Under the pieces are notes generated by a model that was given only the letters and a program-made list of their open reading frames with translations, ran no database searches and had not been told where the DNA came from. Positions 1-22,881 of a DNA stretch of 64,000 bases are shown here, piece by piece. Origin of the DNA: a virus (taxonomy: Duplodnaviria > Heunggongvirae > Uroviricota > Caudoviricetes); IMG/VR virus record IMGVR_UViG_3300033553_000816; one strand, 5' to 3'. A program made the translations under genes and the position numbers. Within the stretch, counting starts at the first letter, position 1, and each line of letters begins with the position of its first letter.

Positions 1-1160
1 GTTTCATCATTTTCAACATCATCTATCCAAGAAGACATTATATCTTTCTCTTCTTCAGATAAAGTTTCACCCTCAGAGACCACATCAAAAGTGGTTTCAG
101 CTTCCTCATCCTCGACCATCAAATCATCACTCAGGTCATCCCACTGAAGCTCTTCTTCCTGAGGTGCTTCATCTTCATCTGAAATGAAAGCAGCATCCTC
201 TTCTTCCTCAGTTTGTTGATAGTAGTCATCCTCAGCGTATGGCTTCGCAGGTACAGTATCAACTTTGAAGAAATCAAAAACATCCTCCATTCCATTACCG
301 TTTTCGCTTTCAGTTACATCCAACTCTTCCTCAACACTATTACCATAATCTTCTAACTCTTCCTGGGGCTCATCAATGTCATCAGCTAAATCTTCCAAGC
401 CTTCCTCTAGGGGATAGTCATCGTCCTTGCCCTCATTGTCATTCGTAACTTCCTCTTTACTGTAGATACCGTGAAGAGCTTCCTCATCGTTATTCTCCTC
501 TGACAGTAAGTCCTCATCGCCTCTACCGAAGAAACCACCCTTACTACTTTTAGTGTCAGCGTTCTTGTTATCAATCTCTCTGTAGAAGAACTCCCAAGCA
601 TACACGTTCTGCTCTTCCTCAGGGGGACTATCAGAGGAACCTTCAGTCCCGTTATTATCCTCAACACCTATACTGTCAACACCTAAATCTTCAATGTCAG
701 TATCAACCCCATGGGTATCTTCAATCTCTAAAGGGAGGTCATCCAGGCTTTCCTCATTCTCAGGTAGCTCATCACTAGAGGGCGCTTCATCTTCATTATC
801 ATTCTTGTCATCCACCATGTAGGACGTGAACATACGCTCCCATTCGTCTATAGCTTCAGTACCCCTGGGAGGCCATACAACCACCCCTCCCGCATCTTCT
901 TGAAGTTCTGAGGTATCTACGGCCTGAGGCTCACCCACCTCGTTAGACGGCGATTGTTTCACGTGAAACTTTTTGTCCTCCTGGGTAAATTCGTCAATAG
1001 CGTCATAAGGCTCAGTGTCATTTTTCCCAGGTGTATTACCTGCGTTATTCTCTTCCACTTCAAACATGCCTGCCCTCTCATTGTCACCTATAGCGTCTAA
1101 CCAGCTTCCCAGGTAAGCGTCATCTTCCTGTCCGGAGGGAGGGCTTATATTATCAGTCAT
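1..1160 (-). CDS. Highly acidic protein (about 35% Asp/Glu), C-terminus beyond window
   Basis: ATG at 1160-1158 with AGGAG RBS 8 nt upstream (plus-strand actcct at 1171-1176). The frame reads open to position 1, checked by manual translation: MTDNISPPSGQEDDAYLGSWLDAIGDNERAGMFEVEENNAGNTPGKNDTEPYDAIDEF... and later EDDYYQQTEEEEDAAFISDEDEAPQEEELQWDDLSDDLMVEDEEAETT. Edge-truncated ORFs are not listed in the supplied track. Confidence 0.6.
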   Translation of the reverse strand, partial: MTDNISPPSGQEDDAYLGSWLDAIGDNERAGMFEVEENNAGNTPGKNDTEPYDAIDEFTQEDKKFHVKQSPSNEVGEPQAVDTSELQEDAGGVVVWPPRGTEAIDEWERMFTSYMVDDKNDNEDEAPSSDELPENEESLDDLPLEIEDTHGVDTDIEDLGVDSIGVEDNNGTEGSSDSPPEEEQNVYAWEFFYREIDNKNADTKSSKGGFFGRGDEDLLSEENNDEEALHGIYSKEEVTNDNEGKDDDYPLEEGLEDLADDIDEPQEELEDYGNSVEEELDVTESENGNGMEDVFDFFKVDTVPAKPYAEDDYYQQTEEEEDAAFISDEDEAPQEEELQWDDLSDDLMVEDEEAETTFDVVSEGETLSEEEKDIMSSWIDDVENDE

Positions 1161-1199
1161 GTTATCTTAAACTCCTAAGGGGTTCATCACATAAAACAA

Positions 1200-2100
1200 T
1201 ATCGGTTATATACGCTTAATATCTCATATATTCCCATCTCCATAACACCCCCATAAAATAACCTCCAACAACCCAAAACACAACGCACAGAATCTAGTCC
1301 CTTTAAGCACAGAAACCATTCAACCACCCCATCAAAACAAAACAAACCACTCGCCCCAATAAAACACCAGCTGCTACAAAACAGAAAATATGCCCACCTA
1401 AAAACCAAAAAACCATCACACACAAACAACAAGAACCTCCCCCGCTATTTATACAACCAACCAACAACCAAAACAGCCCTCCCCTCATACTACATACAAG
1501 GAACCTCTAAACACCCCTAAGACAAAAACCACTCACACAAACACAAAAACTCCAACAACAAGAAACTCTCCAATAACCCTATACACATATAAACAAACAA
1601 CCCCTATAACTATTACTAGAGAGACCAACACACACAGTTACCTATAAGCATCACCATAGGGGAGATACACCATAGAGACCACACACACTTAACCTCACAC
1701 TCACACTTGTACCTATACGTCTATAACCATTACCCTATACACATACGCCCTATAGACCCGTACCCATTAACCACTATACACACTAACCCTTACACTCCTA
1801 CCTATACGCTATTACCCTATGACCAAATACACTAACCCTTACACTCTTACCTGTACCTGTATACCTATTACTAATTAACCTATAAAGAAACCCTCAACAA
1901 ACAAACCAAAAACCCTTACCTTGAAAATCGTTACGAAACCCAACAACAACGACGCTTCCCGCGTCTTAACAACAACAATAAAGAAACCCAACTTTACACA
2001 ACAAACCCATGAACCTCAACTGATAACAGCTAACGAAACAATGACCCGAAAGAACCCCAGCCTGACACTGCGGGAAACCCCGAAGCCATTTCCCTTAAAC
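1200..2100. repeat. A/C-rich (top strand) low-complexity non-coding region with dispersed short motifs (CCTATAC, ACACTAACCCTTACACTC x2, CACACAC runs)
   Basis: No credible ORF on either strand; the only ORFs (1187..1432 -, 1303..1488 -) are Cys/Phe/Trp-rich compositional artefacts. Motif (t/c)(a/c)CCTATA recurs at about 1579, 1601, 1640, 1699, 1722, 1748, 1800 and 1815. TACACTAACCCTTACACTC occurs twice (about 1779-1797 and 1828-1846). Confidence 0.6.
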
Positions 2101-2144
2101 AAATAAACCCCAAACAACAACGACGCTTCCCGCGTCTTAACAAC
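1935..2144. repeat. Pair of about 38-bp direct repeats (1935-1973 and 2105-2144), each containing palindrome GACGC-ttccc-GCGTC
   Basis: AAACCC..AACAACAACGACGCTTCCCGCGTCTTAACAAC is present twice, 171 bp apart. The 32-nt cores at 1942-1973 and 2113-2144 are identical. Internal 5-bp inverted repeat at 1951-1965 and 2122-2136. Confidence 0.8.
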
Positions 2145-2179
2145 TGAAACACTTTAATTCTTTAGCGGAGCCGCCACGG

Positions 2180-2262
2180 TCTGTCTTCTCGACAGATCCC
2201 TTCTGGCTCCTTGAAAAGATTAACTGCTTAAAAGATTAACTGCTTTAAGGATGAACTGCTTA
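2180..2262. promoter_or_regulatory. Hairpin (TCTGTC-ttctc-GACAGA, 2180-2198) followed by three tandem 15-16-bp iteron-like units AAGATTAACTGCTT(A/T) / AAGGATGAACTGCTTA (2216-2262)
   Basis: Read directly from sequence. Lies at the junction between the A/C-rich and G/T-rich top-strand blocks and between divergent gene blocks. Confidence 0.7.
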
Positions 2263-2516
2263 CCTAGGGAACTGTTTGAGGGTAATACTTTATATGAGGT
2301 TGAGTGTCAAGTTGTGGTGTCGGATAGTTTCGGGTGTGGGGTCGGAGGGGCTGCTTGTGTGTCTTGGTGTGTTGCGCTTGCGCGCCAGTGGTTCATTCCT
2401 TTGGTACACGTTTTGTGTCCTGGGTTATTTAAGGGGTGTGGCGTTGACTTCCATTATAACCAGTGTTATCTGTACGATATTAGCATTAACATCATCATGT
2501 CAGGAGCGTCACCGTT

Positions 2517-2927
2517 ATGGTTTATATAGCTGACACCGCCACTGTATCTGAGCTACATAATGTCATAGATAACTCACGCATTGAAGGCACCGCTCATGTC
2601 GGTAGGAACGTCCTCACTTGTGGTGACGCTGAGGTTTACGGTAACGCTATAATTAAATCACGTAACGTTTTTAAGATAGCTATCTTCACCAACAACTGCC
2701 ATGTTTTCGGTAACGCTATCATAGACGTTTCACACTTCAAAGAAGGGATTAAATTCATCTTCGGAAGGGGCTGTAAAATAGGTGGTTGGTTTGACCTGAG
2801 AGAGTACCCCACCATAGATGACTTCGTAGAAAAATACAGTGAGAACTGTGAGCTGAGTTGGCTCTCGGAAGATGAATATTCAAGTAAGATGCGTTGTGTC
2901 AAAGTAACTGATGTTTGGTTGATGTAA
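2517..2927 (+). CDS. Family A beta-helix-repeat protein (short DNCHVFGNAIID subtype; ends VTDVWLM)
   Basis: ATG verified at 2517. N-terminus MVYIADTATV; C-terminal module GCKIGGWFD...DDFVEKY...VTDVWLM. Paralogous to A2, A3 and A31. Confidence 0.75.
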   Translation: MVYIADTATVSELHNVIDNSRIEGTAHVGRNVLTCGDAEVYGNAIIKSRNVFKIAIFTNNCHVFGNAIIDVSHFKEGIKFIFGRGCKIGGWFDLREYPTIDDFVEKYSENCELSWLSEDEYSSKMRCVKVTDVWLM

Positions 2928-3337
2928 TGGTATACATAGCCCCCACCGCATTCGTCACTAACATGCTCAACATTAAAGATGAAGCTAAAGTCCATGACTA
3001 CGCCACTGTTGACAAACATTCCATCCTGTTAAACGAATCACAAATTTACGGTACCGCGAAAATAGCATCCAACAGCACCATAAAAACTGTTATACTCATC
3101 GACAACTGTCATGTCTTCGGGAACGCTAACCTTGACATCTCGCACCTCCCCAGTGGTCTCAAAATCATCTTCGGAAAAGGATGTAAAATCGGAGGGCAGT
3201 TTGATATGCGACGGTTCATCAATGTTGAAAGTTTCATCTACGAATATAAAGACCGTAAAGAGTTGAGCTCCCATTATGACCGCAGAGGTTTCAACATACT
3301 CAGTGTCAAACTAACTGACGTTTGGGTGATGGGATAA
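2927..3337 (+). CDS. Family A beta-helix-repeat protein
   Basis: ATG at 2927 overlaps the upstream TAA (TAATG) and gives MVYIAPTAFV. The track starts at TTG 2915. Ends LTDVWVMG. Confidence 0.75.
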   Translation: MVYIAPTAFVTNMLNIKDEAKVHDYATVDKHSILLNESQIYGTAKIASNSTIKTVILIDNCHVFGNANLDISHLPSGLKIIFGKGCKIGGQFDMRRFINVESFIYEYKDRKELSSHYDRRGFNILSVKLTDVWVMG

Positions 3338-3341
3338 AATA

Positions 3342-3842
3342 ATGCCATACATAGCCCCTACCGCTCATGTGAGTTTTCATGATAATATTTATGATGACGC
3401 TAGGGTTGAGGACCGCGCTATAATCAACCATAACGGTATACTGTTAGACTCATCTAAAGCTTACTGTAACGCACAGGTCTTATCTAATGATATTCTCAAA
3501 ACCATCATACTCAAAGACAACTGTCATGTGTTCGGTAACGCCATCATAGACATCTCACATTTCACAGGGAACCTGAAACTTATTCTAGGTGAAGGCTGTA
3601 AAGTCGGTGGGCGTTTCGATATGCGGCAGTTCAAAACTGTTGAGGAGTTAGTGGCGGAATACCCTAATAACTCAGAACTAAAAACCATTGAGGAGAACCG
3701 GGATGAAGATCAGTTCGGGTTTATAGATTATGATGATGACCGTCATGGTTATGGTAGGGATATTAGAATAGATTATGATGGTGTGTTATCACCTTACCGG
3801 GTTCTTTCTGTTACGTTGACGAACATTTGGTTAATGGGATGA
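3342..3842 (+). CDS. Family A beta-helix-repeat protein with acidic C-terminal extension
   Basis: MPYIAPTAHV...DNCHVFGNAIIDISHF...GCKVGGRFD...LTNIWLMG. Confidence 0.75.
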   Translation: MPYIAPTAHVSFHDNIYDDARVEDRAIINHNGILLDSSKAYCNAQVLSNDILKTIILKDNCHVFGNAIIDISHFTGNLKLILGEGCKVGGRFDMRQFKTVEELVAEYPNNSELKTIEENRDEDQFGFIDYDDDRHGYGRDIRIDYDGVLSPYRVLSVTLTNIWLMG

Positions 3843-3985
3843 TCTTTCTTTAGAACGCGTTTTGTGTCTCGGAAGTATTAGGGTGTAGAATAAACCCCTC
3901 CCATTATTTTTAACATAATACCCTTTAGGGGACATAAAACTGTGAAGTATTTTTAGGACTGTTTGAGGGCTGCCGCCTTGTCACA

Positions 3986-4300
3986 TTGGGGGGGTGTTTC
4001 TGTTGGGGTTGTATGGAGTTTGGTAGCTGGTGCTGGAGGGCTGGGTGTACATTATTTTTAGCACTGTTGTTTCTTCTCCTCTCTGGTGTGTATCTCTGTT
4101 GGTTCTACTGGAGTTGGAGTACTGCTTGGTATCTCCCCTATGGTGTGTCCCTACTGGAGTTGGACGACTGTTGGTTATCTCTTGTTTGGAGCTGGAGGAC
4201 TGTTCGGTTATTTGCGGAGGTCCGGTTGGCTGTTTATGAGTCGAACTTACTGGGTTTGTGTTTTCCAATATATGCGTTTTGGTTTGGAGGTTAATGTTAT
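3986..4300. repeat. G/T-rich (top strand) region with about 2.5 tandem copies of a ~45-bp unit (TACTGGAGTTGGAGTACTGCTTGGTATCTC...)
   Basis: Units at about 4104-4149, 4150-4190 and 4191-4230. ORFs 3986..4294 (+), 4030..4239 (+) and 3981..4307 (-) are compositional artefacts (Cys/Trp/Phe/Leu-rich). Confidence 0.6.
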
Positions 4301-4847
4301 GGGCCATATCGATTACACTGCCAGTATTACGGCCACTGCTTCTGTTGATGGGTTATCTACGATATATGGATATCCGAGCATTGGGGGACAGTCGGTGGTT
4401 ATTGCATCAACTGTGGATGGTGAGGTTATTATCGAGGATAATGTTAGGCTGAAAGAATGTTAGGTTGAAGGTAGATGTAAGCTAAGTGGTAATTCTGAGC
4501 TGTATCGGTCTGGCGTTAAGGATGATGCTATAGTAGAAGGTAATGTTATTCTGGGAAGTTGTGATATAAGAGATTATGCTTGTATTTATGGAAATGTTAA
4601 ATTAGAAGGCATTTATGTGTCTGGGAATGGTTCTGTTTTTGGGGAAGCTTCATTGCAGGTCTCAGATATAAACGATATGGTTATTGTTCTCCAGGGTAAT
4701 TGTAAGTTTGGTGGGGCGTCTAGTTTTGATGGCTTAAAGACCCCAGTGGATTTCGTCAATAAGTATGGGAGATTCAACGTTGAGGTAAGGCTTAGTGAAA
4801 ATCAACGAACTGTTATTTTTCTAACTGATGTGTGGGATATGGGGTAG
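4299..4847 (+). pseudogene. Family A member disrupted by an in-frame TAG (4461-4463) and an apparent frameshift near 4560
   Basis: GGAGG RBS at 4286-4290, ATG at 4299 giving MGHIDYTASITATASVDG...EDNVRLKEC* . It then resumes with ...SGNGSVFGEASLQ...NCKFGGASSFDGLKTPVDFVNKYG...IFLTDVWDMG (track ORFs 4086..4463 and 4617..4847). The exact frame bookkeeping around 4560-4620 could not be resolved by eye. Confidence 0.5.
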
Positions 4848-4989
4848 GGCCGCTGGGTCGCTTATGGGCACCTGCGGACAGTGTTGTCTCATGGGGGGTT
4901 GCGCATGTTGTGTCTCTGGTTGGGGTTGGAGGGTTGTGTTATACTGGGGTAGAGTTGGTTTTGTTTTGTTGAAAGGTTGGAGGGTTTTT

Positions 4990-5355
4990 ATGGTTCAGTC
5001 TCGTTTTGTTACTGTGGAGTCTGGGGATGAGGTTATTGGTGGTTTGTATGCCGCTGCGTCTTCTGGGGGTTTGTTGGAGTTGAACCTTGTGGTGTTGGTG
5101 CCTGGTTTGGATGTGGTTTCTGAGGGTGTGTTTACTATTTTTGTTGAGAGGTTAGGCGCGGAGGGGCCTGTGTTTGTTCATCCTAATGGTGATGTTGTGT
5201 TGTTGTCTCGGGGTTTTGTTGAGGAGGGTGGTGAGTCTTTTGTGGTTTCTGTTTCTCCGCCTATTGGTGAGTCTCATATGGTGGGGGCTGTTGTTAGGGT
5301 TGGTTCGGAGTTTGAGGGTGTTGTTGGTAGGTTTTTACGGAAACGTTCGGGTTGA
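4990..5355 (+). CDS. Hypothetical protein (Gly/Val-rich) within G/T-rich block
   Basis: GGAGGG RBS then ATG giving MVQSRFVTVESGDEVIGG.... It is the 3' part of track ORF 4828..5355. Composition is strongly shaped by nucleotide bias. Confidence 0.35.
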   Translation: MVQSRFVTVESGDEVIGGLYAAASSGGLLELNLVVLVPGLDVVSEGVFTIFVERLGAEGPVFVHPNGDVVLLSRGFVEEGGESFVVSVSPPIGESHMVGAVVRVGSEFEGVVGRFLRKRSG

Positions 5356-5416
5356 GTTTGTGGTTGTTTGGGGAGGGGTGTAGAAGAAGTAATATGGTGT
5401 TGAAAATAATGGGGGC

Positions 5417-7417
5417 GTGTGTTGTGCGATATGGTTGTCAGGTTATTATGTTTGGAGTTTTGTTATGGTTGATGTTCAGGGAGAGTCTTCTGGGGGTAAT
5501 GAGCGTAGGTTCGTTATGTCACGTGGGTTGGGTCGGGGTGTTGATTTAGCTTCTGGTTTGGGTCGGTTTGCGTCTGAGGGGAGTGGGCGTGGGTTTGTTG
5601 TTTCACGTGGGGTGAAGCGTGGTCTTGCTTTTGTTACTGGTTTGAGTTGGTTTGCGTCTCCTGTTCTTTATTCTATGGGGGTTGTTGCGTTACTCGCTGG
5701 TTTGGGTCAGGCGGATGATAATACGGTTCGTGTGGTTTTGTTTTTTGTTTTTGGTTTAGGTTTACCTTTGTTGTTGACCTTAGCGGTTGTCTCTACTCGT
5801 CGGGTGGAGGAGTTGTTATCTGTGGGGCAGCAGTTTGATCGTGATGTGCGTGAAGCTCCGACTGTGCGTAAGTTGGTTTCTGTTCCTGATGAGTTGTGGA
5901 AAGTTGGGCCTTTGGCTGGTCTTGGTTCTGTTCGTTGTGTTTCAGCGGCGTCTTTCGGTAGTTGGGGTGTTCATGGTGTTCTTGTTTTGTTGGACGCGGA
6001 GTTCCCTGGTGAAGCCCAGGTTAGTTCTGTTCAGTTTGGTTTAGGGGTCACTGAGGGTGTGTTCGATGAGGAGGAGTTGACGCTGGTTGGTCCTGATGTT
6101 GATTTGGGGGTGTGGGATTTTGGGGATGATTTCATTGATTTACGCCCTTTTGGTGTGGTGGCACCGTGGCGGGCTTTCGCGTCGAGTGTTGAGGTTGTGG
6201 CGCGGGCTCTTAACTCTCGTGTGGTTGAGCGTCTTAACGGGGTTCTGAATGAGGGGGTTGTGGTTCACCGTCGTGAGGATCGTTTATTGGTGTGGCAGTC
6301 CCCTGGTGTGGATTTCAGTTTGTATGCGACGACTTCGGGTGTTGCGTCGTTCGCTAATGCGTGGAGTGTTTATCACGCTGAGGAGGGGGTTGCTGTTGAG
6401 GATGATAACACTGTAGCTCAGGAGGAGGGGAAGGTTGCTGGGGTGATGTTTGATTCTGGGATAGCTTCGGAGTTGGCGAGGACTTCGGGTGTTGCTGGGT
6501 TCGCTGACAGGTGGAGCGCTCCCGCTTATGGGTCTTCTGTCGCTGGTCAGCAGGAAGCGGTGGCGCTTGAAACTGCGTCTGTGGGGCGTGTTGTACCTTC
6601 GTCTCGTTTGGGTGTGATATTTGGTGTGGTGATGTTCTATTTTGGGCTTACTGCTGTATCTGCGGGGCTTGCGACTTATGGGCTGCTTAGTTCTGGTGAG
6701 GTTATGGTAGGTGGGGGTTTTAACCTTGTGGTGTCTGTTACGGTGACTGTGGTTAGCGCTGTCGCGGCTGGTTTGTTTTGGCGTTACCTTTCACGGGATG
6801 CTGATCGTAGGAAAGTCTTTGCGCTTGAGGTTCGGCGTTTCGCTAATACCCGGACATGGGATTATGTGATGAAAGATAAGGAGCTGGCTCGTGTGTGGTC
6901 TACTCTCCCTCTTAGTCGTGTTGCGAATTTGAGTATCGGTCCTGTGTCGCGAGGCGCGGGACGTTGGGGTGATGCGGGTGTGGCGCTTGCTATGGGCGAT
7001 TACACTGTTGCGGGTATCCCGGTGAGGACTTTCCTGTCGCGTATGGCGTGGGCTCATTTGGCGGAGGAATCCGCATCAGTTTCTTTTGTTCGTGAGGGTT
7101 TCTCGGAGCGGGCAGCTGGGCTGTTGGGTGGTAGTGATGTTGATGTGGAGTCCGCTGAGTTTAACCGTCGTTGGCGTGTGTTGTCTGATGATCATCGTGC
7201 GGCTCATGCTATGCTCACACCCACAATGATTCTTTTCTTAACTGATGTGGCTGATGAGGGTTTGGCTTTTCATGTTGATGGTGGCCGGGTGTTGTTGTGG
7301 GATGATGGGCGTCGAGTTGATGTTGATTTGACCCGTCGTATGGAGTTGTTGGAACGTTTTGTTGGGGAGTTACCATCATTTTTGCGTGTGAGTTACACTC
7401 CTTATTCTCAAGAGTGA
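5417..7417 (+). CDS. Large hypothetical protein (666 aa; G/V/L/S/R/F/W-rich), probably membrane-associated
   Basis: Long uninterrupted ORF. Internal ~25-aa tandem repeat (SRGLGRGVDLASGLGRFASEG / SRGVKRGLAFVTGLSWFASPV), hydrophobic segments, and a C-proximal motif ILFLTDVADEG resembling the family A terminus. The true start may be downstream, for example MVDVQG at 5465. Confidence 0.5.
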   Translation: MCCAIWLSGYYVWSFVMVDVQGESSGGNERRFVMSRGLGRGVDLASGLGRFASEGSGRGFVVSRGVKRGLAFVTGLSWFASPVLYSMGVVALLAGLGQADDNTVRVVLFFVFGLGLPLLLTLAVVSTRRVEELLSVGQQFDRDVREAPTVRKLVSVPDELWKVGPLAGLGSVRCVSAASFGSWGVHGVLVLLDAEFPGEAQVSSVQFGLGVTEGVFDEEELTLVGPDVDLGVWDFGDDFIDLRPFGVVAPWRAFASSVEVVARALNSRVVERLNGVLNEGVVVHRREDRLLVWQSPGVDFSLYATTSGVASFANAWSVYHAEEGVAVEDDNTVAQEEGKVAGVMFDSGIASELARTSGVAGFADRWSAPAYGSSVAGQQEAVALETASVGRVVPSSRLGVIFGVVMFYFGLTAVSAGLATYGLLSSGEVMVGGGFNLVVSVTVTVVSAVAAGLFWRYLSRDADRRKVFALEVRRFANTRTWDYVMKDKELARVWSTLPLSRVANLSIGPVSRGAGRWGDAGVALAMGDYTVAGIPVRTFLSRMAWAHLAEESASVSFVREGFSERAAGLLGGSDVDVESAEFNRRWRVLSDDHRAAHAMLTPTMILFLTDVADEGLAFHVDGGRVLLWDDGRRVDVDLTRRMELLERFVGELPSFLRVSYTPYSQE

Positions 7418-7463
7418 AAACCAACGCGGAGTACGTGCCCCTGGAATTGGAACTGTGAAGGGT

Positions 7464-7790
7464 TTAGTCTTCTACGTTCATTGCGATATCTTCTACTGAT
7501 GGGTCTAGGTCTGTTGTCCAGTCTTGTATGGTGTCGGGGTATTCTCCCATTATTAGTTGAACGTAGGAGCCTTTGGCTGTGTATAGTCGTAGTTCATCTA
7601 GGTTGTAAGCTTCTGTGAGTACATCATCGGCGTCTTCTACTTTTACGTATTCCCCTCCGTCATATATTTTGGTGACGGGTGTGCCGTGGGATGCCATGGA
7701 TTCTACTATGTCTCTGATGAGTTTTACTTCTCTTTTGTCGGCTTTGTTGATTTGGTTCGTTACGAACGGGATGCGGGGGATGATTGACAT
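7464..7790 (-). CDS. Hypothetical protein
   Basis: 108-aa ORF convergent with the 666-aa gene. Coding strand is A/C-rich, matching the local strand bias. Confidence 0.45.
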   Translation of the reverse strand: MSIIPRIPFVTNQINKADKREVKLIRDIVESMASHGTPVTKIYDGGEYVKVEDADDVLTEAYNLDELRLYTAKGSYVQLIMGEYPDTIQDWTTDLDPSVEDIAMNVED

Positions 7791-8113
7791 GTTGGTTGGT
7801 CCTTTTGTTGTGGTTGTTTTTATTCTATCGGGGTTGGGTTTTGGTTAAAATAACGGGGTTAGTTGAATAGTACCGTTAGTTGCTGTTCGCGTCGATTTGT
7901 GTTTTTGCGATAGCTAGCGTCCTGTTAGCCCAGGTGTCTGGAGTTTCGTCAGGATGTTGGGTGTCCCATGTGACCCGTCCGTTGTTTTGGGTGACTTTGA
8001 TGATGGGATGGTTTTTGTATACGGAGTGTGGGGTTCTAGTTTCGTTCATACTGCTTATTGTATCATGTGTTTATGGGCTGGTCAAGCAAGGGGGAAGTTA
8101 ACTTTGGGTGTGT

Positions 8114-10237
8114 TTACCCAAGGAGGTTGAGTAGTTGGTCTCGGTTGACTTTTTGTTGAACGGTTTTTGTGTTGTGTGCTTTAGCCCATAGTTGAGCTAG
8201 TTCTCCCATGGTGAGGCGTGGGCGTTCAATTTCGTCGTAGACGATTTCCCCTACTGTTGCGTCATCGTTTGATGAGATACCTGATGCTGTTGATCCGTTA
8301 CTGGAGTCTATCCATATCATTTTACCTGTTTCTAGGTTAATTGCGAATGGAACTGATTGTGTGGAAGGGGTGGTGGGTTTGAATGCGGTTGTGATGGTGC
8401 GCGGGTCGAAGGGGTCGCCTTTTTTGGCGTTACTTCTTAGCATAGCTCCGGCGATGAAGTCTACGTTTTTCATTGGCCATCCGGACCAGGATTGTACTGT
8501 CATTGCTACCCATTTCGCTTCGGGGTGGGTTGCGCGTAGTTTGTTCAGGTCAACGTCGATGTATTCGGCGGCGGAGTTTCCGGGTGCTACGTTACAATCA
8601 CCGCTGTAGGTTGCCCATTCACGTGAGTGGTGCCATGCGTTCCATGTGCATACGTCTAGTTTTTGGAATTTGTTGTCAAGGATGATAGCACCGATGTCCA
8701 TGTAGCCGTTTGTATCCTGGTTGTTGTTCCAGTGGCCGAAGATGCGGATTGTGTTTCCTTTTCCTACTGGGGTGAGTTCTTGACCTCGGTCTAATACTCT
8801 GTCCGTGGTTGCTGTGTCACGGCGCACAAGGGGGACAGGTTGCTCGGAGATAATAGCGACTGGTTCCTGTGGCGCTGGGGTGTTTTTGAGGGTTTCTTGG
8901 AGTGCGTCTTTGAGCGCTTGGGCGATAAGGGCAAGGTGGGCGGTTTTGATTTTTGTTGTTGCTTTACGGTCAACCATTGTGTTAGTTAGCCCTGCGACAC
9001 GAGTTACCCTTGTGTTATCGTCGTTTGCTGAGATGACACCGTTGTATGCGGAGATGATAGTTGTGGTTGTTGATTGTGGCCCTGTGTTGCGGATCGCTTC
9101 AGCTAGGGTGTTTACTTCTTGTTTGTTGGCGGTGAGGCGTAGGATAGCTACTGCGCGTCGGAGTAGGTTACCTGGTTGGTTTTCTGTTAGGAGTTTAATT
9201 GCTGTGGTTGCGTCACCTGTGTTCATTGCGGTTTCCACTAGGGAGTTGAGGGTGCGGTAGTTGATGTTGGTGTGGATGATATCTACGGCGCGTTTTTGTT
9301 CGGTGGTGAGTGTGAAATCGTAAGGGTGGACTGCTTTCATGATGGTGCGCCAAAGGTTTATACGGGTGATGAGGCTGTCTGCTTTGAAACCTTCGGTGAG
9401 TGCTCCAAGTTGGTTGATGATGACTTTTCGGGCGGGGCGGGAAATTTTGTTCATACGGACAGCGCGTGCGTGACGGTTCGCGAGGGTGTTGACAGTTAGG
9501 GTGTAGTTGTCGTTCCATTTTTCATTTGCGGGTGCTGTGGCTACTGTAAGAATTACTCGTAGGAGCTGGTCTGTGTTGTTACAGGTGAGTGCTGTTGCGA
9601 TGATGAGCTCGTTGGAGTTGAAGTCACAAATAGTGTGAACGGCTTTTATGAAGGATTGTAGGTTTTCACCGTTGCGGGAGTTTTTTGTGATCTCAACGAT
9701 TGTTTCAAGAGTAGGGTGTTGTAGTTCAATTGCGTTTGTGAGTAGGGTACGTTCGTCTTCAGAGAGAGCTATGGGGCGTGTGGTGAGGGCGCTTATGTAC
9801 TCGCGGGCGGTGTTTGCTGCTGTGAGCACTTTTACTTCGCGGGCGTTACGCATCATGTCTTCTAATGGTAGGCCTTCACGGGCGATGGTGGGGTAGTTGG
9901 GTAGGAACTCTCCGGCTGTCCAGTAGTGCAGGATTTGTTCAACTAGAAGAGTGAGTGTGTCTAGTTGTTCAACTTGTTCTGGGAACCCTGGGTAGATTGG
10001 GGTCATATCTCGGTCTGCGCCAACGATGGTGCGTGCGTCTTCAAGCATGTTAGTTAGAGCTTCAGTGCTCATGGTTCGGAGTTCGTTTACATCAACGATG
10101 AATCCTAAGTTAGCCATCTCTACCATTGCGGCGTTGGTGATTTCGGGAGGGGTGCTCTCAGGGTTGGTTTTGTTTGCGCGCACGACAATTCCGTTGCGGA
10201 GTGCGCTGACGCGGAATTCCTGAGTGATTTTAGCCAT
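8114..10237 (-). CDS. Large Thr/Ala/Asn-rich protein with TerD-like C-terminal domain
   Basis: 707-aa ORF. C-terminal ~200 aa (GNTIRIFGHW...DIGAIILDNKFQ...YSGDCNVAPGNSAAEYIDVDLNKL...KWVAMTVQSWSG...NVDFIAGAMLR) aligns by eye to the TerD family pattern (LGWD...DLDASAFLL..NGKV...HTGDNRTGEGDGDDE.IKIDL...KIIFVVTI...FGQV..AFIR). Confidence 0.6.
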   Translation of the reverse strand: MAKITQEFRVSALRNGIVVRANKTNPESTPPEITNAAMVEMANLGFIVDVNELRTMSTEALTNMLEDARTIVGADRDMTPIYPGFPEQVEQLDTLTLLVEQILHYWTAGEFLPNYPTIAREGLPLEDMMRNAREVKVLTAANTAREYISALTTRPIALSEDERTLLTNAIELQHPTLETIVEITKNSRNGENLQSFIKAVHTICDFNSNELIIATALTCNNTDQLLRVILTVATAPANEKWNDNYTLTVNTLANRHARAVRMNKISRPARKVIINQLGALTEGFKADSLITRINLWRTIMKAVHPYDFTLTTEQKRAVDIIHTNINYRTLNSLVETAMNTGDATTAIKLLTENQPGNLLRRAVAILRLTANKQEVNTLAEAIRNTGPQSTTTTIISAYNGVISANDDNTRVTRVAGLTNTMVDRKATTKIKTAHLALIAQALKDALQETLKNTPAPQEPVAIISEQPVPLVRRDTATTDRVLDRGQELTPVGKGNTIRIFGHWNNNQDTNGYMDIGAIILDNKFQKLDVCTWNAWHHSREWATYSGDCNVAPGNSAAEYIDVDLNKLRATHPEAKWVAMTVQSWSGWPMKNVDFIAGAMLRSNAKKGDPFDPRTITTAFKPTTPSTQSVPFAINLETGKMIWIDSSNGSTASGISSNDDATVGEIVYDEIERPRLTMGELAQLWAKAHNTKTVQQKVNRDQLLNLLG

Positions 10238-10311
10238 GAGATGTCTTCCCTTATTTTTGTTGCTGTTTTATTGTTTTTGATTTAGTTTTCTTAAAAACCC
10301 AGTGTTTCTAA

Positions 10312-10340
10312 ATGTACCATAGCTGTTTCATGTTGTCAAG
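10312..10340 (-). promoter_or_regulatory. Sigma70-like promoter for the 707-aa gene (TTGACA -17 nt- TACATT on minus strand)
   Basis: Reverse complement of 10335-10340 is TTGACA, a 17-nt spacer follows, and the reverse complement of 10312-10317 is TACATT. Confidence 0.35.
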
Positions 10341-10578
10341 TGATGGGTTATTTTGTTTTTGGGTGTATATAAGGGGCGTTTGAAAGTTTAAGTGTCAGGA
10401 AAAGCGAAACGGTGGTTCTATTATCAATTTATGTAGTAACCGCTCCAAGGAGCCTGACATTAAATATTGTAGCACATTTTTTTGAAAGGTCAAATTTATT
10501 TTATGTTTTTATAGAAAATTTTTCTATTTTGTATAGGGGCCGAGCGGGGCGATTGTTAAGGGAGGGCTTTAGGTTTTG

Positions 10579-11136
10579 TTATTTGTTGATTTCTATTTCT
10601 TGTAGGAGCCCAGCCCAGTCGGTTCTGTCTTCTTCTCGCCAGCCAGCTCCAACCATTGTTACTACCCACGTTTCACTGTTGGCTTCTACTTCAGCTAAGA
10701 AATTTTTGACTCTGATGGTGCTGTCTGTTTCGGCGTTAGGTTTTAGAGCGTAACCTTCTGCTCTTCCTAGTTTGACAGGTTCACCGGTTTTGAGGGGTTT
10801 TAGGTTCGGGTTTGAGTTTTTCAGTATCTCTACCTGTTTGCCATAGAAGTTGAACATGACACCTTCATGGTTTTTTAATATAGTCAGGTCACTGGCGCGG
10901 TTGATTTTCAGTTGGTTGTCCGCCATGAAGAACCTGGCTTGTTTTTCGCTGCTGGGTGCGTTTAACGCTATTTGTGTACCGGTCATTGCTATTCCTGTGA
11001 AAATTGACCAAAAAATTACGTAGAGGTTCAGGTCAGCCCGGAATAATGTGAGCATTGCGATTGTCAAAAAAAGCCCTGGTGTTACCCACAGGGCGATTGC
11101 TTTGTTGGATGTACCGTACGGTAAGTGTTTTCTCAT
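10579..11136 (-). CDS. Membrane protein (two N-terminal TM helices + soluble domain)
   Basis: 185-aa ORF. Hydrophobic N-terminus (IALWVTPGLFLTIAMLTLF... IFWSIFTGIAMTG). Confidence 0.55.
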   Translation of the reverse strand: MRKHLPYGTSNKAIALWVTPGLFLTIAMLTLFRADLNLYVIFWSIFTGIAMTGTQIALNAPSSEKQARFFMADNQLKINRASDLTILKNHEGVMFNFYGKQVEILKNSNPNLKPLKTGEPVKLGRAEGYALKPNAETDSTIRVKNFLAEVEANSETWVVTMVGAGWREEDRTDWAGLLQEIEINK

Positions 11137-11260
11137 AATATTTATTGTACACTATTTTTTGTGGTTAAAAAATAATGGGAGTTGCCTTATATCGGGGAGT
11201 ACTTGACTTTGGTTGGGTTTGGTTGTAGGATGGGTAGTGAGTCTACATGGAGGTTTGGTT

Positions 11261-11686
11261 ATGAGTTTTGTTGCTGATACTGCTTCTGTGAATTTTAGGT
11301 CCGTTGTTCTTGATGAAGGTCGGGTTGAAGGTCGGGCTGTTCTTAGAAGTGCTGTGGTGAGGGGTTTCGCAGTGGTTTGTGATGCGGCGGATGTGGCGTA
11401 TTCTTTTGTGAGTGGGCATGCGCGGATTTATGGTACTGCGGTTGTGAAGGACATGCGTGTTCTTAATAGTTCTTGTATTTTCGGTTCCGCACATCTGGTT
11501 GGTAATCGCGACGGTACTATTTATGGGGTTGAGTTACACGGTGATTGTAAGTTCGGCGGGACAGCTTCTTTTGAGGGGCTGAACACTGTACAGGATTTTG
11601 TTGACAGGTATGGGCAGGGTCATGTCAGGGTGGATGAGAATGCGCGTGGCACTGTTATGTTAACTGACGTTTGGGATATGGGTTAG
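11261..11686 (+). CDS. Family A beta-helix-repeat protein
   Basis: GGAGG RBS then ATG at 11261 giving MSFVADTASVNF...DCKFGGTASFEGLNTVQDFVDRYG...LTDVWDMG. The track starts at TTG 11213. Confidence 0.75.
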   Translation: MSFVADTASVNFRSVVLDEGRVEGRAVLRSAVVRGFAVVCDAADVAYSFVSGHARIYGTAVVKDMRVLNSSCIFGSAHLVGNRDGTIYGVELHGDCKFGGTASFEGLNTVQDFVDRYGQGHVRVDENARGTVMLTDVWDMG

Positions 11687-11831
11687 GGACGCAAAATAGG
11701 TTCTTCAACTGGGTTGCTAATATTATTCTCTTGTAGAGAAATGGTCTTTTTCCCTTGACTTCCACTAGGATTGGATGTAGTGTTGTTATAAGTTCACATG
11801 CGTGTGGGATGTAAAGTTAAAGGGGAGAATT

Positions 11832-12071
11832 ATGGTTCGTATTGGTGATGATACTGTGAAGCCTGAGCAGCTGGAGTGGGCTGAAGGCCTCCCTAATGAT
11901 GGGGAATATGAATATACGTCAACGGGACCATGTGATGGCTCCTATTCTATTCGACTTCGCCGCACCCCGCGAGCCCGGATTAAGGATGGCATGTGGGTAC
12001 ATACTCGTGAGTATGGTCAGTGGGAGAGCTCAACTGAGGAGCAGTACCAAGCCGCTTGTCTAGAGAAGTAG
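11832..12071 (+). CDS. Small hypothetical protein
   Basis: AGGGGAGA RBS then ATG at 11832 (MVRIGDDTVKPEQLEW...). Candidate promoter TTGACT-17-TAGTGT at about 11752-11780. Confidence 0.45.
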   Translation: MVRIGDDTVKPEQLEWAEGLPNDGEYEYTSTGPCDGSYSIRLRRTPRARIKDGMWVHTREYGQWESSTEEQYQAACLEK

Positions 12072-12216
12072 GGTAACTAGCTGTTTGAGGACCGCCAGTA
12101 AAAGCAAGTACTCTGGTTGTAACCACATCTAACTGACTAATGTTAGACATGGGGTTGTGCTGGTAACCCTAGCTGTGCTATTGTTCTTCTATAGCAACCC
12201 GATGAGAGGACCTTCG

Positions 12217-12633
12217 ATGAAGCGTTTTGGAACATTTTTTATGATTATGTCACTAGGTGTTGTATTCACGAGTGGTTGCACTGAGGTGGTTCACACTCAG
12301 TCGGACACGCCAGTTATTAAGTCTGAAGCTGGTTGGGATTATTTCTGGCTTCAGCTGAGCGATGACAGGGTTATTTATTGCTTGGATGATGACGCCGGGT
12401 TGCCTTATGGTTCACTTAGTTGTGACTGGTCGAAGTTTTACACTCTGTCTGATGTCCCTGAGGGCGAAAACCTACAGGAAGTGAAGAAGGTTTACGATGA
12501 GGCTATTACCATTAGGAATGGCTACACCGAAACGTTCGTGACTGATTCTCGTGGGATGACGGCACTGTGTGTCTCAAATTCCCTTGGTTTCGAGGATGGG
12601 GTGCTCTCCTGCGGTTGGGAAACTACTGACTGA
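12217..12633 (+). CDS. Putative lipoprotein
   Basis: MKRFGTFFMIMSLGVVFTSGC, a signal peptide with a lipobox Cys. ATG verified at 12217. Confidence 0.55.
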   Translation: MKRFGTFFMIMSLGVVFTSGCTEVVHTQSDTPVIKSEAGWDYFWLQLSDDRVIYCLDDDAGLPYGSLSCDWSKFYTLSDVPEGENLQEVKKVYDEAITIRNGYTETFVTDSRGMTALCVSNSLGFEDGVLSCGWETTD

Positions 12634-12657
12634 GTTGATTGATCCGGGGTGTAAATA

Positions 12658-13188
12658 ATGATTTATATAGATAGCACTGCTTTTGTGGACAAGGATTCTG
12701 AAATTGAGGATGATGCGCGTGTTGAGGGGCGCGTACAGGTTCGGGGTTCTACTGTTCGCGATACGGCTCGGGTTTCCGGACGGGCTACCATTAAGGAAAG
12801 TAATATTTTTGGTTCAGCTGAGGTCTATGGCGACGCTAGGCTGATGGGCTCTTCTATTCGCGGTGAAGCTAGAGTTGGGGGTTCAGCTGAGCTTCATTTC
12901 ACGCATGTTGGCGGTCGCGCTGAAATTTACGGTGACGCTAAGTTGTTTTCTGTTAGTGCCACTGATGACGCTACTGTTTTTGGTAATGCTGTTCTTGCTC
13001 CGGAGGAAGGTTTAGATGTTTCTTTAGGCCATGGGTGTAAGTTCGGTGGTTCCGCTAATTTTATGGGGCTGAAAACCCCTGAAGATTTCGTAGCTAAATA
13101 CGGGGCGCTTAGGGTTGAGGTCCGCAATCTTGACGATTCTAGCCTTTTTCAACTTATTGTGTTGACTGATGTTTGGGATATGGGGTAA
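12658..13188 (+). CDS. Family A beta-helix-repeat protein
   Basis: MIYIDSTAFV...GCKFGGSANFMGLKTPEDFVAKYG...LTDVWDMG. Confidence 0.8.
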   Translation: MIYIDSTAFVDKDSEIEDDARVEGRVQVRGSTVRDTARVSGRATIKESNIFGSAEVYGDARLMGSSIRGEARVGGSAELHFTHVGGRAEIYGDAKLFSVSATDDATVFGNAVLAPEEGLDVSLGHGCKFGGSANFMGLKTPEDFVAKYGALRVEVRNLDDSSLFQLIVLTDVWDMG

Positions 13189-13194
13189 AAAATA

Positions 13195-13689
13195 ATGGAA
13201 TATGTTGCGGATACAGTTCATGTGGATGGAGGTTCCAGAGTTAAGGGGGCCGCACGGGTTGAAGGTAACGTGGTTTTAGTCGACTCGCTCATTTATGGTT
13301 CAGCTGCTGTTTCGGGGAATGTTCGAGTTGAGGCTTCTCATGTGATGGGTGAAGCTGAGGTCAGTGGTTCAGCTGAGCTGCTGCATTCTGCTGTTGGTGG
13401 GGCGGGACGTGTTCACGGAAATGCTGTTCTGGAGAACATTCACGTGTTCGATACTTCTTGTGTTTATGGGGATGCGGTTCTTAAGAGTGAGCTGGGCGAT
13501 GGTTTCATTGTTGAGTTGCAGGGTGACTGTAAGTTCGGTGGGTCTGCAACTTTTAAGGGGCTGGAACTTATTGAAGATTTCATGGAGAAATACGGTGAGG
13601 ATAAAGTAACTTGGAAGAAGTCTAGAAATAAAGTTCGTGGCGAAAAAGGGGAAACTATTGTTCTAACCGATGTTGAAGACATGGGTTAA
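13195..13689 (+). CDS. Family A beta-helix-repeat protein
   Basis: MEYVADTVHV...DCKFGGSATFKGLELIEDFMEKYG...LTDVEDMG. Confidence 0.8.
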   Translation: MEYVADTVHVDGGSRVKGAARVEGNVVLVDSLIYGSAAVSGNVRVEASHVMGEAEVSGSAELLHSAVGGAGRVHGNAVLENIHVFDTSCVYGDAVLKSELGDGFIVELQGDCKFGGSATFKGLELIEDFMEKYGEDKVTWKKSRNKVRGEKGETIVLTDVEDMG

Positions 13690-13703
13690 GCAGAGAAAAC
13701 ATA

Positions 13704-14279: not shown

Positions 14280-14345
14280 GTATACCTGTGCTTTTGATCC
14301 TTTATTTAGCCCCTCGTTAGGAATATAATAATCAGGGTATCTTTT

Positions 14346-15035: not shown

Positions 15036-15047
15036 GTCGATCATATT

Positions 15048-15572: not shown

Positions 15573-15658
15573 GACTTCGTTGTTAGCGGTTTATGTGCTA
15601 TGCTATATGTTATGACTAAATTAATGTAAAAATAAGTTTAAGAAACAGGAGTTACAGT

Positions 15659-16171: not shown

Positions 16172-16185
16172 CCGAGTAAACTAAC

Positions 16186-16680: not shown

Positions 16681-16689
16681 GGGAGAAAA

Positions 16690-17277: not shown

Positions 17278-17288
17278 GAGGAGAGTAC

Positions 17289-17801: not shown

Positions 17802-17933
17802 TAGTAGTTTCTCTTCACAGCTGGTTGTCCTCTATAATTTGCGAGCATCTTAATATTATGCTATGATTCTTATGGTAGTAATAAGAGCTTACTGCCATAA
17901 GTAAGTTTAATCTAACACAAAAAGGGACGTTTG

Positions 17934-18395: not shown

Positions 18396-18454
18396 GTAAG
18401 TTTTACGTTATTAGAGAAATTTATCTATAGGACATAAACACGGGAGGTCAGTAT

Positions 18455-18976: not shown

Positions 18977-18980
18977 GACT

Positions 18981-22877: not shown

Positions 22878-22881
22878 AGAT

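Follow-up and report, generated by a model that had tools for sequence, protein, structure and literature searches.

Results

Gene content of the locus

The window, a 64-kb stretch of a phage-like genome of ~203 kb (202,758 bp), contains an interval of 1356 bp without a credible gene (1161-2516), bounded by an acidic-protein gene and by the first gene of the A array, which starts at 2517. The acidic-protein gene (3-1160, minus strand) begins with an ATG at 1160 accompanied by a TAGGAG Shine-Dalgarno sequence, extends past the left end of the window and is the sole gene visible to the left of the compositional switch point described below. Its 386 visible codons encode a protein with 34% D+E and a pI of 4.05, for which homologue searches detected no homologue. 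The A array consists of three paralogous plus-strand genes, A1 to A3 (2517-2927, 2927-3337 and 3342-3842).

The absence of credible ORFs over about 1.35 kb, as claimed in the original prediction, agrees with a comparison to L003/L006, the sole relative compared, by which coding potential was ruled out for ORFs 1187-1432, 1303-1488, 1921-2106 and 2251-2529. The frame of ORF 2251-2529 (plus strand) is not kept, because the indels relative to L003 have lengths of 4, 6, 1, 9, 3, 4 and 6. In ORF 1303-1488 (minus strand), non-synonymous substitutions account for three of the four in the conserved part, with synonymous change near zero against a dS of ~1.3 in neighbouring genes. The sequence surrounding ORF 1921-2106 (plus strand) cannot be aligned with the relative.

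Near-identical DNA was not found in phage and plasmid collections, exact-pattern scans of viral, metagenome and genome collections with the conserved blocks and the hairpin repeat described below returned no match, and locus searches guided by the acidic protein, a 707-aa protein, P0009 (encoded by a 17.4-kb contig) and an A-array alignment found no locus. Sample SRR13628066 contains the phage, and samples ERR10493341 and ERR10493343 contain the relative. Rfam 15 covariance models run over 1-12000 gave only two chance matches (E 0.59 and 0.68), both outside the gap, and no tRNA or tmRNA genes were found; an Rfam RNA or tRNA identity for the gap was therefore rejected.

The A/C-rich spacer and its repeats

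Between 1241 and 2150 the plus strand is rich in A and C and poor in G (A.42, C.34, G.07, T.17; calculated from minus-strand figures). The spacer is also given as 82% A+C and 5% G, with G at 5-7% overall, and the stretch 1241-1640 has A.465, C.352, G.052 and T.13. The A+C content per 100 bp stays at 67-85% until ~2150, in agreement with the earlier statement that the top strand is A/C-rich up to about 2100. The counterpart of the spacer in the relative has A.39, C.37, G.06 and T.17, although identity between the two outside the conserved blocks is only 49-55%; the composition has been kept despite fast evolution.

A degenerate internal duplication aligns 1573-1973 to 1729-2144. A regular satellite structure of ~160 bp was considered and rejected, as only pairwise degenerate duplications are present. 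The dispersed CCTATA motifs that had been noticed number eight, all on the plus strand between 1578 and 1879, versus 0.83 expected (0/1000 local shuffles). A cluster of CCCTATACAC-type repeats (1575-1810, plus strand) keeps a single orientation throughout; it includes 35-nt repeats starting at 1678 and 1773, with a third copy at 1822-1856 just beyond it. Three copies of CTATACAC lie in this cluster versus 0.13 expected, which is three quarters of all copies in the window. The relative has four copies of CTATACAC versus 0.11 expected, as well as five copies of its own 15-nt family, CCCTATACACCAATA, and the CTATACAC-type family is thus common to both genomes.

Toward the right end of the spacer lie two direct repeats (1939-1973 and 2110-2144, plus strand) spaced 171 bp apart, each bearing a GACGC-TTCCC-GCGTC hairpin (1951-1965 and 2122-2136; -7.5 kcal/mol, z -3.1 and -4.7). 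These repeats had been described as 38 bp long; the exact match is 32 nt (1942-1973 and 2113-2144), or 35 nt at 97%, where shuffles expect none. They are absent from the relative. They do not qualify as intrinsic terminators, which have a G+C-rich stem and a U run kept in relatives: a terminator scan flagged them on the minus strand only, with a 5-bp stem and the tail GTTGTTGTT. A public short-read contig identical to the window (L001) begins at 2115, inside the second copy, which we infer to be a break at the repeated 32-mer. No clear dinucleotide preference, as a deaminase sequence-context signature, was seen in the spacer or in the G/T-rich island described below.

Conserved blocks, compound palindrome and tandem repeats

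Alignment of the window to L003 identified five noncoding blocks that are 83-97% identical between the two genomes, against 43-61% elsewhere, and that stay conserved while dS in A1 and A3 has reached 1.3-1.4. Apart from the palindrome B4, the blocks adjoin the genes, with B1-B3 toward the acidic gene and B5-B6 toward A1 (88-97% versus the 43-61% background). Block B1 (1283-1307) reads CGCACAG..TCT.GTCCCTTTAAGC, and block B2 (1361-1414; 93% identity) includes CAGCTG and is conserved at the nucleotide level rather than the protein level. Block B3 (1436-1475, minus strand; 97% identity) reads TTGTATAAATAGCGGGGGAGG on the minus strand. Its motif TTGTATAAATA-NN-GGGGG (TATAAATA-GGGGG) has a single occurrence in the window and is found again in the relative upstream of a DUF3137-like gene, in the orientation of that gene, which suggests that B3 may be a promoter-like element directed at the acidic gene. 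Block B5 (2271-2320, plus strand; 92% identity) contains ACTGTTTGAGGGTAATACTTTATATGAGG..GTGTCAAG; its ACTGTTTGAGGG is found again at 3958 and the G/T-rich run begins at this block, so B5 is probably the start of a rightward leader. Block B6 (2369-2435, plus strand; 88% identity), within the G/T-rich leader, includes GCGCTTGCGCGC and a small hairpin, ACACGTTTTGTGTC, and a 24-nt motif within it (2396-2419) is repeated directly past the A3 stop (3845-3868) in both genomes. A sigma-70 scan gave seven sites versus 6.9 expected and none in the conserved blocks, so that B3 and B5 are promoter-like only by position and recurrence. Promoters of T7-like or other single-subunit polymerases in the strings CACCATAGGGGAGA and TAACCCTTACACTC were rejected, as the strings do not recur elsewhere in the window.

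Block B4 (2164-2213; 83% identity) forms a compound palindrome where the skew switches. Its outer arms are GGAGCC (2167-2172) and GGCTCC (2205-2210), and its inner hairpin pairs 2178-2185 with 2191-2198; the TCTGTC/GACAGA hairpin of the original prediction is present at 2180-2196 as the inner portion of this larger structure. The fold has z = -4.2 on the plus strand and -4.4 on the minus strand. Across the two genomes, 27 of the 28 cells of its 14 pairs are paired, with one compensatory change from C-G to T-A and one broken pair. A protelomerase target site was rejected because B4 falls short of a near-perfect palindrome.

Directly to the right of B4 are AT-rich tandem 16-mers (2214-2277, plus strand) in three copies plus a degenerate one (2262-2277, read by eye). 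The unit, AAAAGATTAACTGCTT, is present in 3.1 copies at 2214-2262 and nowhere else in the window, in line with the three tandem 15-16-bp units reported before. The array belongs to the most AT-rich 30-mers of the gap (77%), and the 16-bp period corresponds to 1.5 helical turns, so the units are not helically phased. In their place the relative has the AGATTMA core only, as AAGACTTAACAGCTT followed by (GATTCAA)x3. The tandem 16-mers are a candidate unwinding or binding element.

The repeats singled out in the original prediction are therefore lineage-specific and are not the conserved parts of the gap, which are the compound palindrome, four other blocks and the CTATACAC family, none of which it had highlighted.

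Strand composition on the two sides of the gap

Across the window, cumulative keto skew is lowest at 2152, from where it rises without interruption as far as 63.6 kb; since the curve covers 64 kb of the 202,758-bp genome, this low point may be a local one. The cumulative T-A and G-C skews have their minima at 2151 and 2210, respectively. G-C skew peaks at 45,534 (~45.5 kb), where gene orientation flips, while the keto curve keeps climbing across the minus-strand gene block. Because it is the GC skew and not the keto skew that turns at this flip, the keto skew is not driven by gene orientation.

Third codon positions read on the plus strand give G/(A+G) and T/(C+T) values of.424/.632 for 32 plus-strand genes and.428/.645 for 25 minus-strand genes. 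In the acidic gene the values are.32 (.324) and.48 (.476), reversed in sign relative to the right side. The third-position bias thus tracks the DNA strand and not the gene, and it reverses at the gap, with the polarity of the G/T-rich leading strands diverging on both sides.

The bias is extreme close to the gap. The stretch 2281-2516 is 67% G+T, and an island of extreme G/T excess (3843-13700, plus strand) is independent of gene orientation. From 4.8 to 13.7 kb its third positions are 72-88% G+T on the plus strand in both orientations, with G/(A+G) and T/(C+T) at.84/.89 in plus-strand genes (4828-5355, 5417-7417 and 11213-11686) and.78/.78 in minus-strand genes (7464-7790, 7876-8049, 8114-10237 and 10579-11136). 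Third-position G+T is down to ~.55 by 15 kb. The predicted G/T-richness for tens of kilobases holds as a mild excess, but the extreme bias is seen only at 2281-2516 and from 3843 to ~13,700. Between these extremely biased stretches, the A-array genes (2517-3842) are unskewed (third-position G+T.46), as they are in the relative. G/T-rich leaders as a general intergenic property of this genome were rejected, as the other intergenic regions of the window are all neutral, with G+T of.44-.57.

The relative shares both the composition of the spacer and the skew of the island, where its orthologue has third-position G.39 and T.47. By comparison, the WXIN homologue of the gene at 8114-10237 (47% amino-acid identity) has no such bias (third-position C.49, G.36), indicating that the island bias was acquired in this genome. 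For this single gene with a close homologue, a donor genome as the source of the bias was rejected.

Discussion

Based on the arrangement above, our best reading, to which we give a probability of roughly 45%, is that replication starts bidirectionally in the gap, in an origin zone that overlaps divergent control elements. The gap would be a non-coding control region separating two diverging gene blocks, and its right-hand 130 bp (~2150-2280), which hold B4 and the AT-rich tandem patch, most likely form the replication start zone, because the gene-free stretch sits at an orientation-independent reversal of bias. On either side of this core, the displaced strand may remain single-stranded for longer, whether it serves as template for the lagging strand or is the strand left free in a D-loop or R-loop. 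Such an exposed strand would gather C-to-T and A-to-G changes, which would lead to an A/C-rich spacer to the left of the core and a G/T-rich island to its right. The CTATACAC-type and AGATTMA repeats are putative binding sites for a protein. If B3 is the acidic-gene promoter and B5/B6 the start of a rightward leader, origin and promoters would overlap, as they also do in phages T7 and T4.

The part of the predicted bidirectional origin that stands is the orientation-independent switch with the polarity of an origin. What does not stand is its supposed machinery: of the hairpin repeats and the 16-mers, both lineage-specific, the former are absent from the relative and the latter replaced. The A-array genes, at a distance of 240-1600 bp from the core, show no skew in either genome, even though their synonymous sites are saturated between the two. 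A smooth origin bias that depends on distance does not predict this, and the unskewed array needs an extra assumption, such as later insertion of the cassette, codon selection or cassette exchange. DnaA boxes (TTWTNCACA) number zero in 1161-2516 and four in the whole window, E. coli Chi sites are absent, and no initiator, helicase, primase or Rep-like domain was found in ORFs from 3 to 12,000 with Pfam, NCBIfam and PHROGs. Literature searches on keto skew in phages and on MORN paralogues in jumbo phages found nothing useful.

The switch resembles the skew-defined origins of bacterial chromosomes and large phages in that a G/T excess changes sign and leading-strand polarity diverges, at synonymous sites and regardless of gene orientation. 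Compared with the usual replication skew, the bias near the switch is much more pronounced, with G+T reaching 88% at third positions; it is patchy in sparing the A array and fades within ~12 kb, and the window has neither DnaA boxes in the gap nor a detected initiator gene. With iteron origins such as phage lambda ori and those of iteron plasmids, the region has in common a gene-free cluster of direct repeats, an AT-rich patch and a palindrome. It contains at least three tandem direct repeats of initiator-site length (3.1 plus one degenerate); unlike iterons, however, these are unphased at a 16-bp period, are not conserved in the relative, which has 7-nt repeats instead, and have no detected initiator adjacent to or enclosing them. 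The T4 origins ori(uvsY) and ori(34) are R-loop origins with a promoter and an unwinding element. In a similar way, a promoter-like block adjoins the AT-rich patch here and TGCTT(A/T)A strings resemble a MotA box, but the spacing from box to minus-10 does not fit, the TGCTT strings are lost in the relative and the contents of the window are in no way T4-like.

An unlikely explanation of the bias is that replication starts at the control region by a mitochondrion-like, prolonged strand displacement (D-loop or R-loop) that leaves kilobases single-stranded on each side, or a host or phage single-strand DNA deaminase acting on the exposed strands. Its footprint would comprise the 72-88% G+T at synonymous sites, the 5% G of the spacer and, in a resident gene, a nonsense codon likely created by C-to-T change. 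As in the vertebrate mitochondrial control region, one strand is A/C-rich with ~5% G, C-to-T and A-to-G changes apparently fall on the same strand, and a synonymous bias in genes of both strands is anchored at a non-coding region. In contrast to the mitochondrial asymmetry, the pattern is mirror-imaged about the gap and, in a double-stranded DNA genome of 203 kb, is confined to ~14 kb, and we know of no strand-displacement replication in such phages. On grounds of polarity, single-strand transfer of the conjugative oriT type and 5'-to-3' end resection would both be at odds with the observed bias, and they were rejected.

It is also conceivable, though somewhat doubtful, that the gap is purely a transcriptional control region with divergent promoters and untranslated G/U-rich leaders but no replication start, the mirror-image bias coming from exposure of the non-template strand in transcription bubbles or R-loops, above all where the polymerase is not trailed by ribosomes. 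The conserved blocks occupy the sites expected of promoters and leaders, the B3 motif recurs and B5 opens the G/T-rich run. Skew is seen in the untranslated stretches 2281-2516 and 3843-4300 and in the A4 pseudogene but is mild or absent in the translated genes A1-A3 and the acidic gene, a pattern expected if translation protects from R-loops. Yet the most skewed genes, 4828-5355 and 5417-7417 (third-position G+T.85-.88), are apparently translated plus-strand genes; the minus-strand genes at 7464-11136 share the plus-strand bias, which would require strong antisense read-through; and the mild plus-strand keto excess continues over 17 kb of minus-strand genes. Moreover, were B3 the acidic-gene promoter, leftward transcripts would not include 1490-2150, a stretch upstream of it, and sigma-70 sites are no commoner than chance. 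A further view of the A/C-rich strand, that it yields an unstructured C-rich, G-poor RNA which either insulates by loading Rho or acts as a sponge for an RNA-binding protein, is extremely improbable. With 5% G and 35% C across 900 nt and many AAN-type runs, such an RNA could hardly fold, but it matches no Rfam family, no promoter or terminator flanks the spacer, the sequence is unconserved except for B1-B3 and the repeat motif, the AAN runs are lost in the relative and the orientation-independent bias of the coding genes is left without explanation.

Two other explanations concern the history or the ends of the DNA. We consider it quite improbable that the region is a mosaic relic, that is, old or foreign, formerly GC-rich DNA with past strand-specific deamination, in which function today is limited to the promoter and leader blocks and the switch point itself plays no part. 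Such a history would account for the GC content of the island (.45-.55 versus.40-.44 in the rest of the window), for the best relatives of its genes being in actinobacteriophages, for a third-position pattern that fits one-strand C-to-T change of a donor GC-rich at third positions, for sharp skew boundaries that match gene cassettes, and for the difference in gene content between window and relative. It conflicts with the spacer, which is only ~50% identical between the genomes yet has 5-6% G in both, indicating that the bias has still been acting since their split. The genome's own beta-solenoid family members at 12157-13689 are skewed as well (third-position G+T.70), the conservation of B4 at the switch point argues against a functionless site, and a relic would explain neither the strand excess in the far field nor its change of sign at the same point. 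A genome end or packaging region, with the window spanning a terminal-repeat junction of the circularised assembly and the array and palindrome as signals for terminase, concatemer processing or injection, is very unlikely in our view; phage T5, for example, has a repeat-laden injection-stop region. A further comparison is with the left end of phage T7, where a repeat array lies beside the terminal repeat, together with a secondary origin at phiOL and an AT-rich patch, early promoters and the acidic gene 0.3. T7 161-400, just interior to the terminal repeat, has A.37, C.28, G.11 and T.24, and CTAAAG occurs 11 times on one strand in the first 340 bp, followed by the early promoters and the acidic-protein gene. 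The array in the window is likewise A/C-rich, G-poor and made of short repeats on one strand (eight CCTATA and three CTATACAC), with an AT-rich patch and an acidic-protein gene nearby, and it is followed by leaders and small genes; the 13-nt CTTAAAAGATTAA also occurs in the AT-rich patch past T7 phiOL, a post hoc observation. Against this, there is no sequence homology to T7 past that one 13-mer, the T7 array is ~240 bp long with a composition set by the repeat itself, T7 genes all run in one direction whereas the acidic gene diverges, and no terminal repeat is visible in the window. Joined ends with internal bidirectional replication would predict G/T and then A/C on the plus strand, the opposite of what is seen, and 5'-to-3' resection of ends would expose the opposite strands. 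The start of contig L001 at 2115 lies within a repeated 32-mer and so need not be a physical end.

To our knowledge, the replication origins of jumbo and uncultivated phages have almost never been mapped. For a bidirectional origin at this gap, the orientation-independent reversal at synonymous sites, located at a conserved palindrome, provides a concrete site for cloning and testing. The unusual aspect of the bias is its strength and confinement, with both transitions near saturation on one strand over ~11 kb and mirrored on the opposite side. If the bias is mutational, it would record which strand is exposed around a phage origin, and it would mean that mutation pressure acting locally is able to alter the codon usage of a viral genome and, apparently, to disable one of its genes. 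For annotation, caution is warranted, as gene callers place spurious hydrophobic ORFs in G/T-rich DNA of this kind.

Strand composition around the gene-free gap

The most unusual finding is a mirror-image, kilobase-scale and near-saturated transition bias around a gene-free gap, part of which lies beyond the region originally singled out. The gap spans 1356 bp between the acidic-protein gene (- strand, ATG at 1160; 34% D+E, pI 4.05) and A1, the first of three paralogous genes on the + strand (A1-A3, the A array, 2517-3842). As originally described, its top strand is A/C-rich (A+C 67-85% per 100 bp until ~2150; A.465, C.352, G.052 and T.13 in 1241-1640) and turns G/T-rich after the repeats (67% G+T in 2281-2516). 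No such skew was found in the other intergenic regions of the window. The cumulative (G+T)-(A+C) curve reaches its lowest point in the whole window at 2152 and then climbs without reversal to 63.6 kb, and cumulative T-A is minimal at 2151. Cumulative G-C has its minimum at 2210 and its maximum at 45,534, where the genes change strand; GC skew, unlike keto skew, therefore tracks coding orientation.

Third-position ratios, always read on the + strand for each gene group, support this distinction. G/(A+G) and T/(C+T) are.424 and.632 for 32 + strand genes at 14-64 kb and.428 and.645 for 25 - strand genes at 39-63 kb, so a modest strand-borne excess exists; its sign is flipped in the acidic-protein gene (.324 and.476), the sole gene to the left. 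The excess is far stronger in a G/T-rich island (3843-13700), with.84 and.89 for + strand genes,.78 and.78 for - strand genes, and.66 and.73 for three genes at 12157-13689. From 4.8 to 13.7 kb, third positions are 72-88% G+T on the + strand in either gene orientation (+ strand: 4828-5355, 5417-7417, 11213-11686; - strand: 7464-7790, 7876-8049, 8114-10237, 10579-11136), falling to ~.55 by 15 kb. The A array, between the switch point and the island, is spared (.39 and.50).

Purine and pyrimidine ratios are both shifted in the island, the apparent + strand changes being C-to-T and A-to-G, and no dinucleotide context stands out as preferred. C-to-T together with A-to-G on one strand is the pattern expected of single-stranded DNA damage, as in mitochondrial genomes. 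The A/C-rich spacer (~1241-2150) is the mirror image of the island, with a composition that would fit GC-rich sequence after G-to-A change on the + strand. The island's G+C content is raised (.45-.55 versus.40-.44). Its 707-aa protein (8114-10237, -) is 47% identical to a Mycobacterium phage WXIN protein; it also hits phrog_33734 and, at E 3e-57 but short of the curated cut-off, the MXAN_6230/SCO0854 RING-domain family. The coding strand of this gene is A/C-rich at third positions, whereas the WXIN homologue has no such bias, which was therefore acquired in the window's genome.

The A family has a fourth member (4302-4847; 182 codons, ending in LTDVWDMG), an otherwise intact ORF interrupted by a single TAG in frame at 4461-4463, a position that could plausibly have been CAG. 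C is down to.12 in this gene, which is probably a pseudogene produced by C-to-T bias. The relative described below has neither this gene nor that at 4981-5355.

Conservation in a relative

The relative is represented by two overlapping short public contigs from sister samples, L003 (2911 bp) and L006 (2775 bp), which cover the counterpart of ~1250 to ~7400. A-gene orthologues share 61-74% protein identity (dS 1.3-1.4 for A1 and A3). Five noncoding blocks stand out from this divergence, namely B2 (1361-1414, 93% identical), B3 (1436-1475, 97%), B4 (2161-2213, 83%), B5 (2271-2320, 92%) and B6 (2369-2435, 88%), the remaining gap being 43-61% identical. The diverged part of the relative's spacer is still G-poor (A.39, C.37, G.06, T.17), so the bias has been maintained in both lines since their split, and the relative's island gene is skewed to the same degree (third-position G.39, T.47).

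B4 is a compound palindrome exactly at the switch point, with an outer stem of 6 bp and an inner stem of 8 bp. Across the two sequences 27/28 cells are paired, with one broken pair and one compensatory C-G to T-A change, which from two sequences is only an anecdote. B3 reads TTGTATAAATAGCGGGGGAGG on the minus strand, a motif that in the relative also lies upstream of a DUF3137-like gene and in that gene's orientation, which suggests a promoter.

The claim that the gap holds no credible ORFs was borne out, as ORFs there fail comparative tests. The frame of 2251-2529 (+) is broken by indels relative to the relative. Where 1303-1488 (-) overlaps the conserved blocks, 3/4 substitutions are non-synonymous and synonymous change is almost nil, against dS of ~1.3 in neighbouring genes. 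Automatic annotation of the public assemblies puts hydrophobic ORFs of 29-93 aa on the G/T-rich strand here (L003 78-719, -; window 2251-2529, +), although the DNA is noncoding, and these look like composition artefacts.

All the repeats originally reported are present and far above chance: an exact 32-nt direct repeat (1942-1973 and 2113-2144) carrying the GACGC-N5-GCGTC hairpin, the TCTGTC/GACAGA hairpin, tandem 16-nt units (2214-2262) and eight CCTATA motifs on the same strand. The hairpin-bearing repeats were not found in the relative, and the 16-mers are replaced there by AAGACTTAACAGCTT with (GATTCAA)x3 and GATTAAC, an AGATTMA core being the sole recurring part. As origin elements, the proposed iterons and hairpin repeats thus give way to a reading as lineage-specific decoration. 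What both genomes have in common is a CTATACAC repeat (three copies in the window's spacer, 0.13 expected; four in the relative's, 0.11 expected), embedded in single orientation throughout in 13-15-nt units, CCCTATACACATA in the window and, in the relative, five copies of CCCTATACACCAATA. Palindrome B4, blocks B2, B3, B5 and B6, and the CCCTATACAC repeats are better candidates for function. A short-read contig identical to the window, L001, begins at window position 2115 within the second copy of the 32-mer, a break taken to be an assembly effect of the repeat and not a physical end.

Origin and alternative readings

In replication skew, a bidirectional origin has G/T-rich strands running 5' to 3' away on both sides. 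The polarity at ~2200 is of this type, with such strands running outward both ways. At the switch point lie a conserved palindrome and an AT-rich repeat patch, and next to it a short conserved motif is arrayed on one strand; together with the polarity, these features therefore lead us to rank first an origin zone overlapping divergent control elements, at a probability of about 0.45. The original prediction is thus partly supported: its strand switch stands, resting on the keto minimum and on a third-position bias independent of gene orientation, and its assignment to iterons and hairpins is not supported. Several points are difficulties for the origin reading. The window shows a single gene to the left and about a third of the whole genome. 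Among the ORFs from 3 to 12,000 no initiator gene turned up, nor did a DnaA box in the gap. A further difficulty is the A array, unskewed in both genomes yet only 240-1600 bp from the core. A simple distance-dependent origin bias cannot explain the latter without an added assumption, which might be later insertion of the array as a cassette (a 24-nt motif lies on both flanks), codon selection (A2 third positions are 41% C) or cassette exchange.

Bias arising from transcription or R-loops would account for skewed untranslated stretches beside unskewed translated A genes, but it cannot explain the far-field excess, the - strand genes or those + strand genes that are translated and yet strongly skewed, and we regard it as rather unlikely. 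The sharp, cassette-like boundaries and the island's higher G+C would suit a relic or mosaic, an improbable reading that leaves the maintained G depletion and the conserved B4 unexplained. Polarity would argue against a genome end or packaging region, which we likewise consider improbable, and slightly more so, even with a real analogue in the left end of T7 (A.37, C.28, G.11 in 161-400). An A/C-rich RNA that loads Rho or serves as a sponge for a protein is very improbable; neither an Rfam match nor a promoter or terminator turned up for it, and the relative does not conserve its sequence.

Other sequence features

The 24-nt motif, TTC.TTT.G.AC.CGTTTTGTGTC, contains a small hairpin and brackets the A1-A3 cassette on either side in both genomes (2396-2419 and 3845-3868; L003 ~1140-1165 and 2636-2662), and ACTGTTTGAGGG is likewise duplicated (2271 and 3958); these may mark a cassette boundary, insertion or processing site. 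The spacer (1652-1668, +) and the G/T-rich leader 2.5 kb away (4129-4145, -) share CACCATAGGGGAGATAC as a perfect inverted match of 17 nt, and a similar string, ATCTCCTATGGTGTGTCC, is retained in the relative's leader. The motif (G)TAGATTATTTTTAGCACTGTT (3946-3963 and 4051-4068; twice in L006) forms an AT-rich patch inside G/T-rich leaders of both genomes, has AGATTA and ACTGYTT strings in common with the tandem 16-mers, and may be a regulatory site or promoter. Within those 16-mers, the 13-nt CTTAAAAGATTAA (2226-2238) is identical to T7 426-438, part of an AT-rich patch just downstream of the phiOL promoter; noticed post hoc, this may be chance.

The window looks like DNA of a phage or jumbo phage, with densely packed genes and Shine-Dalgarno sites, and its proteins are encoded on one 202,758-bp contig in NCBI and JGI records. 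Long arrays of beta-solenoid or bactofilin-like paralogues occupy the + strand (2.5-45.6 kb) and a MORN-like array the - strand (45.6-62.5 kb). Very large arrays lie at 12157-30080, 34652-41008 and 45610-62528, with members of 150-290 aa that are beta-solenoid, bactofilin or hexapeptide-like on the + strand and MORN variants on the - strand, some of the latter with 87-bp internal tandem repeats (55169-55330, 61688-61942). The window also carries an SPFH gene, a serine recombinase (resolvase) gene (62988-63560, +) and a TnpB/OrfB-type gene (20974-22206, +) that is 37% identical to a Thermus phage phiLo gene.
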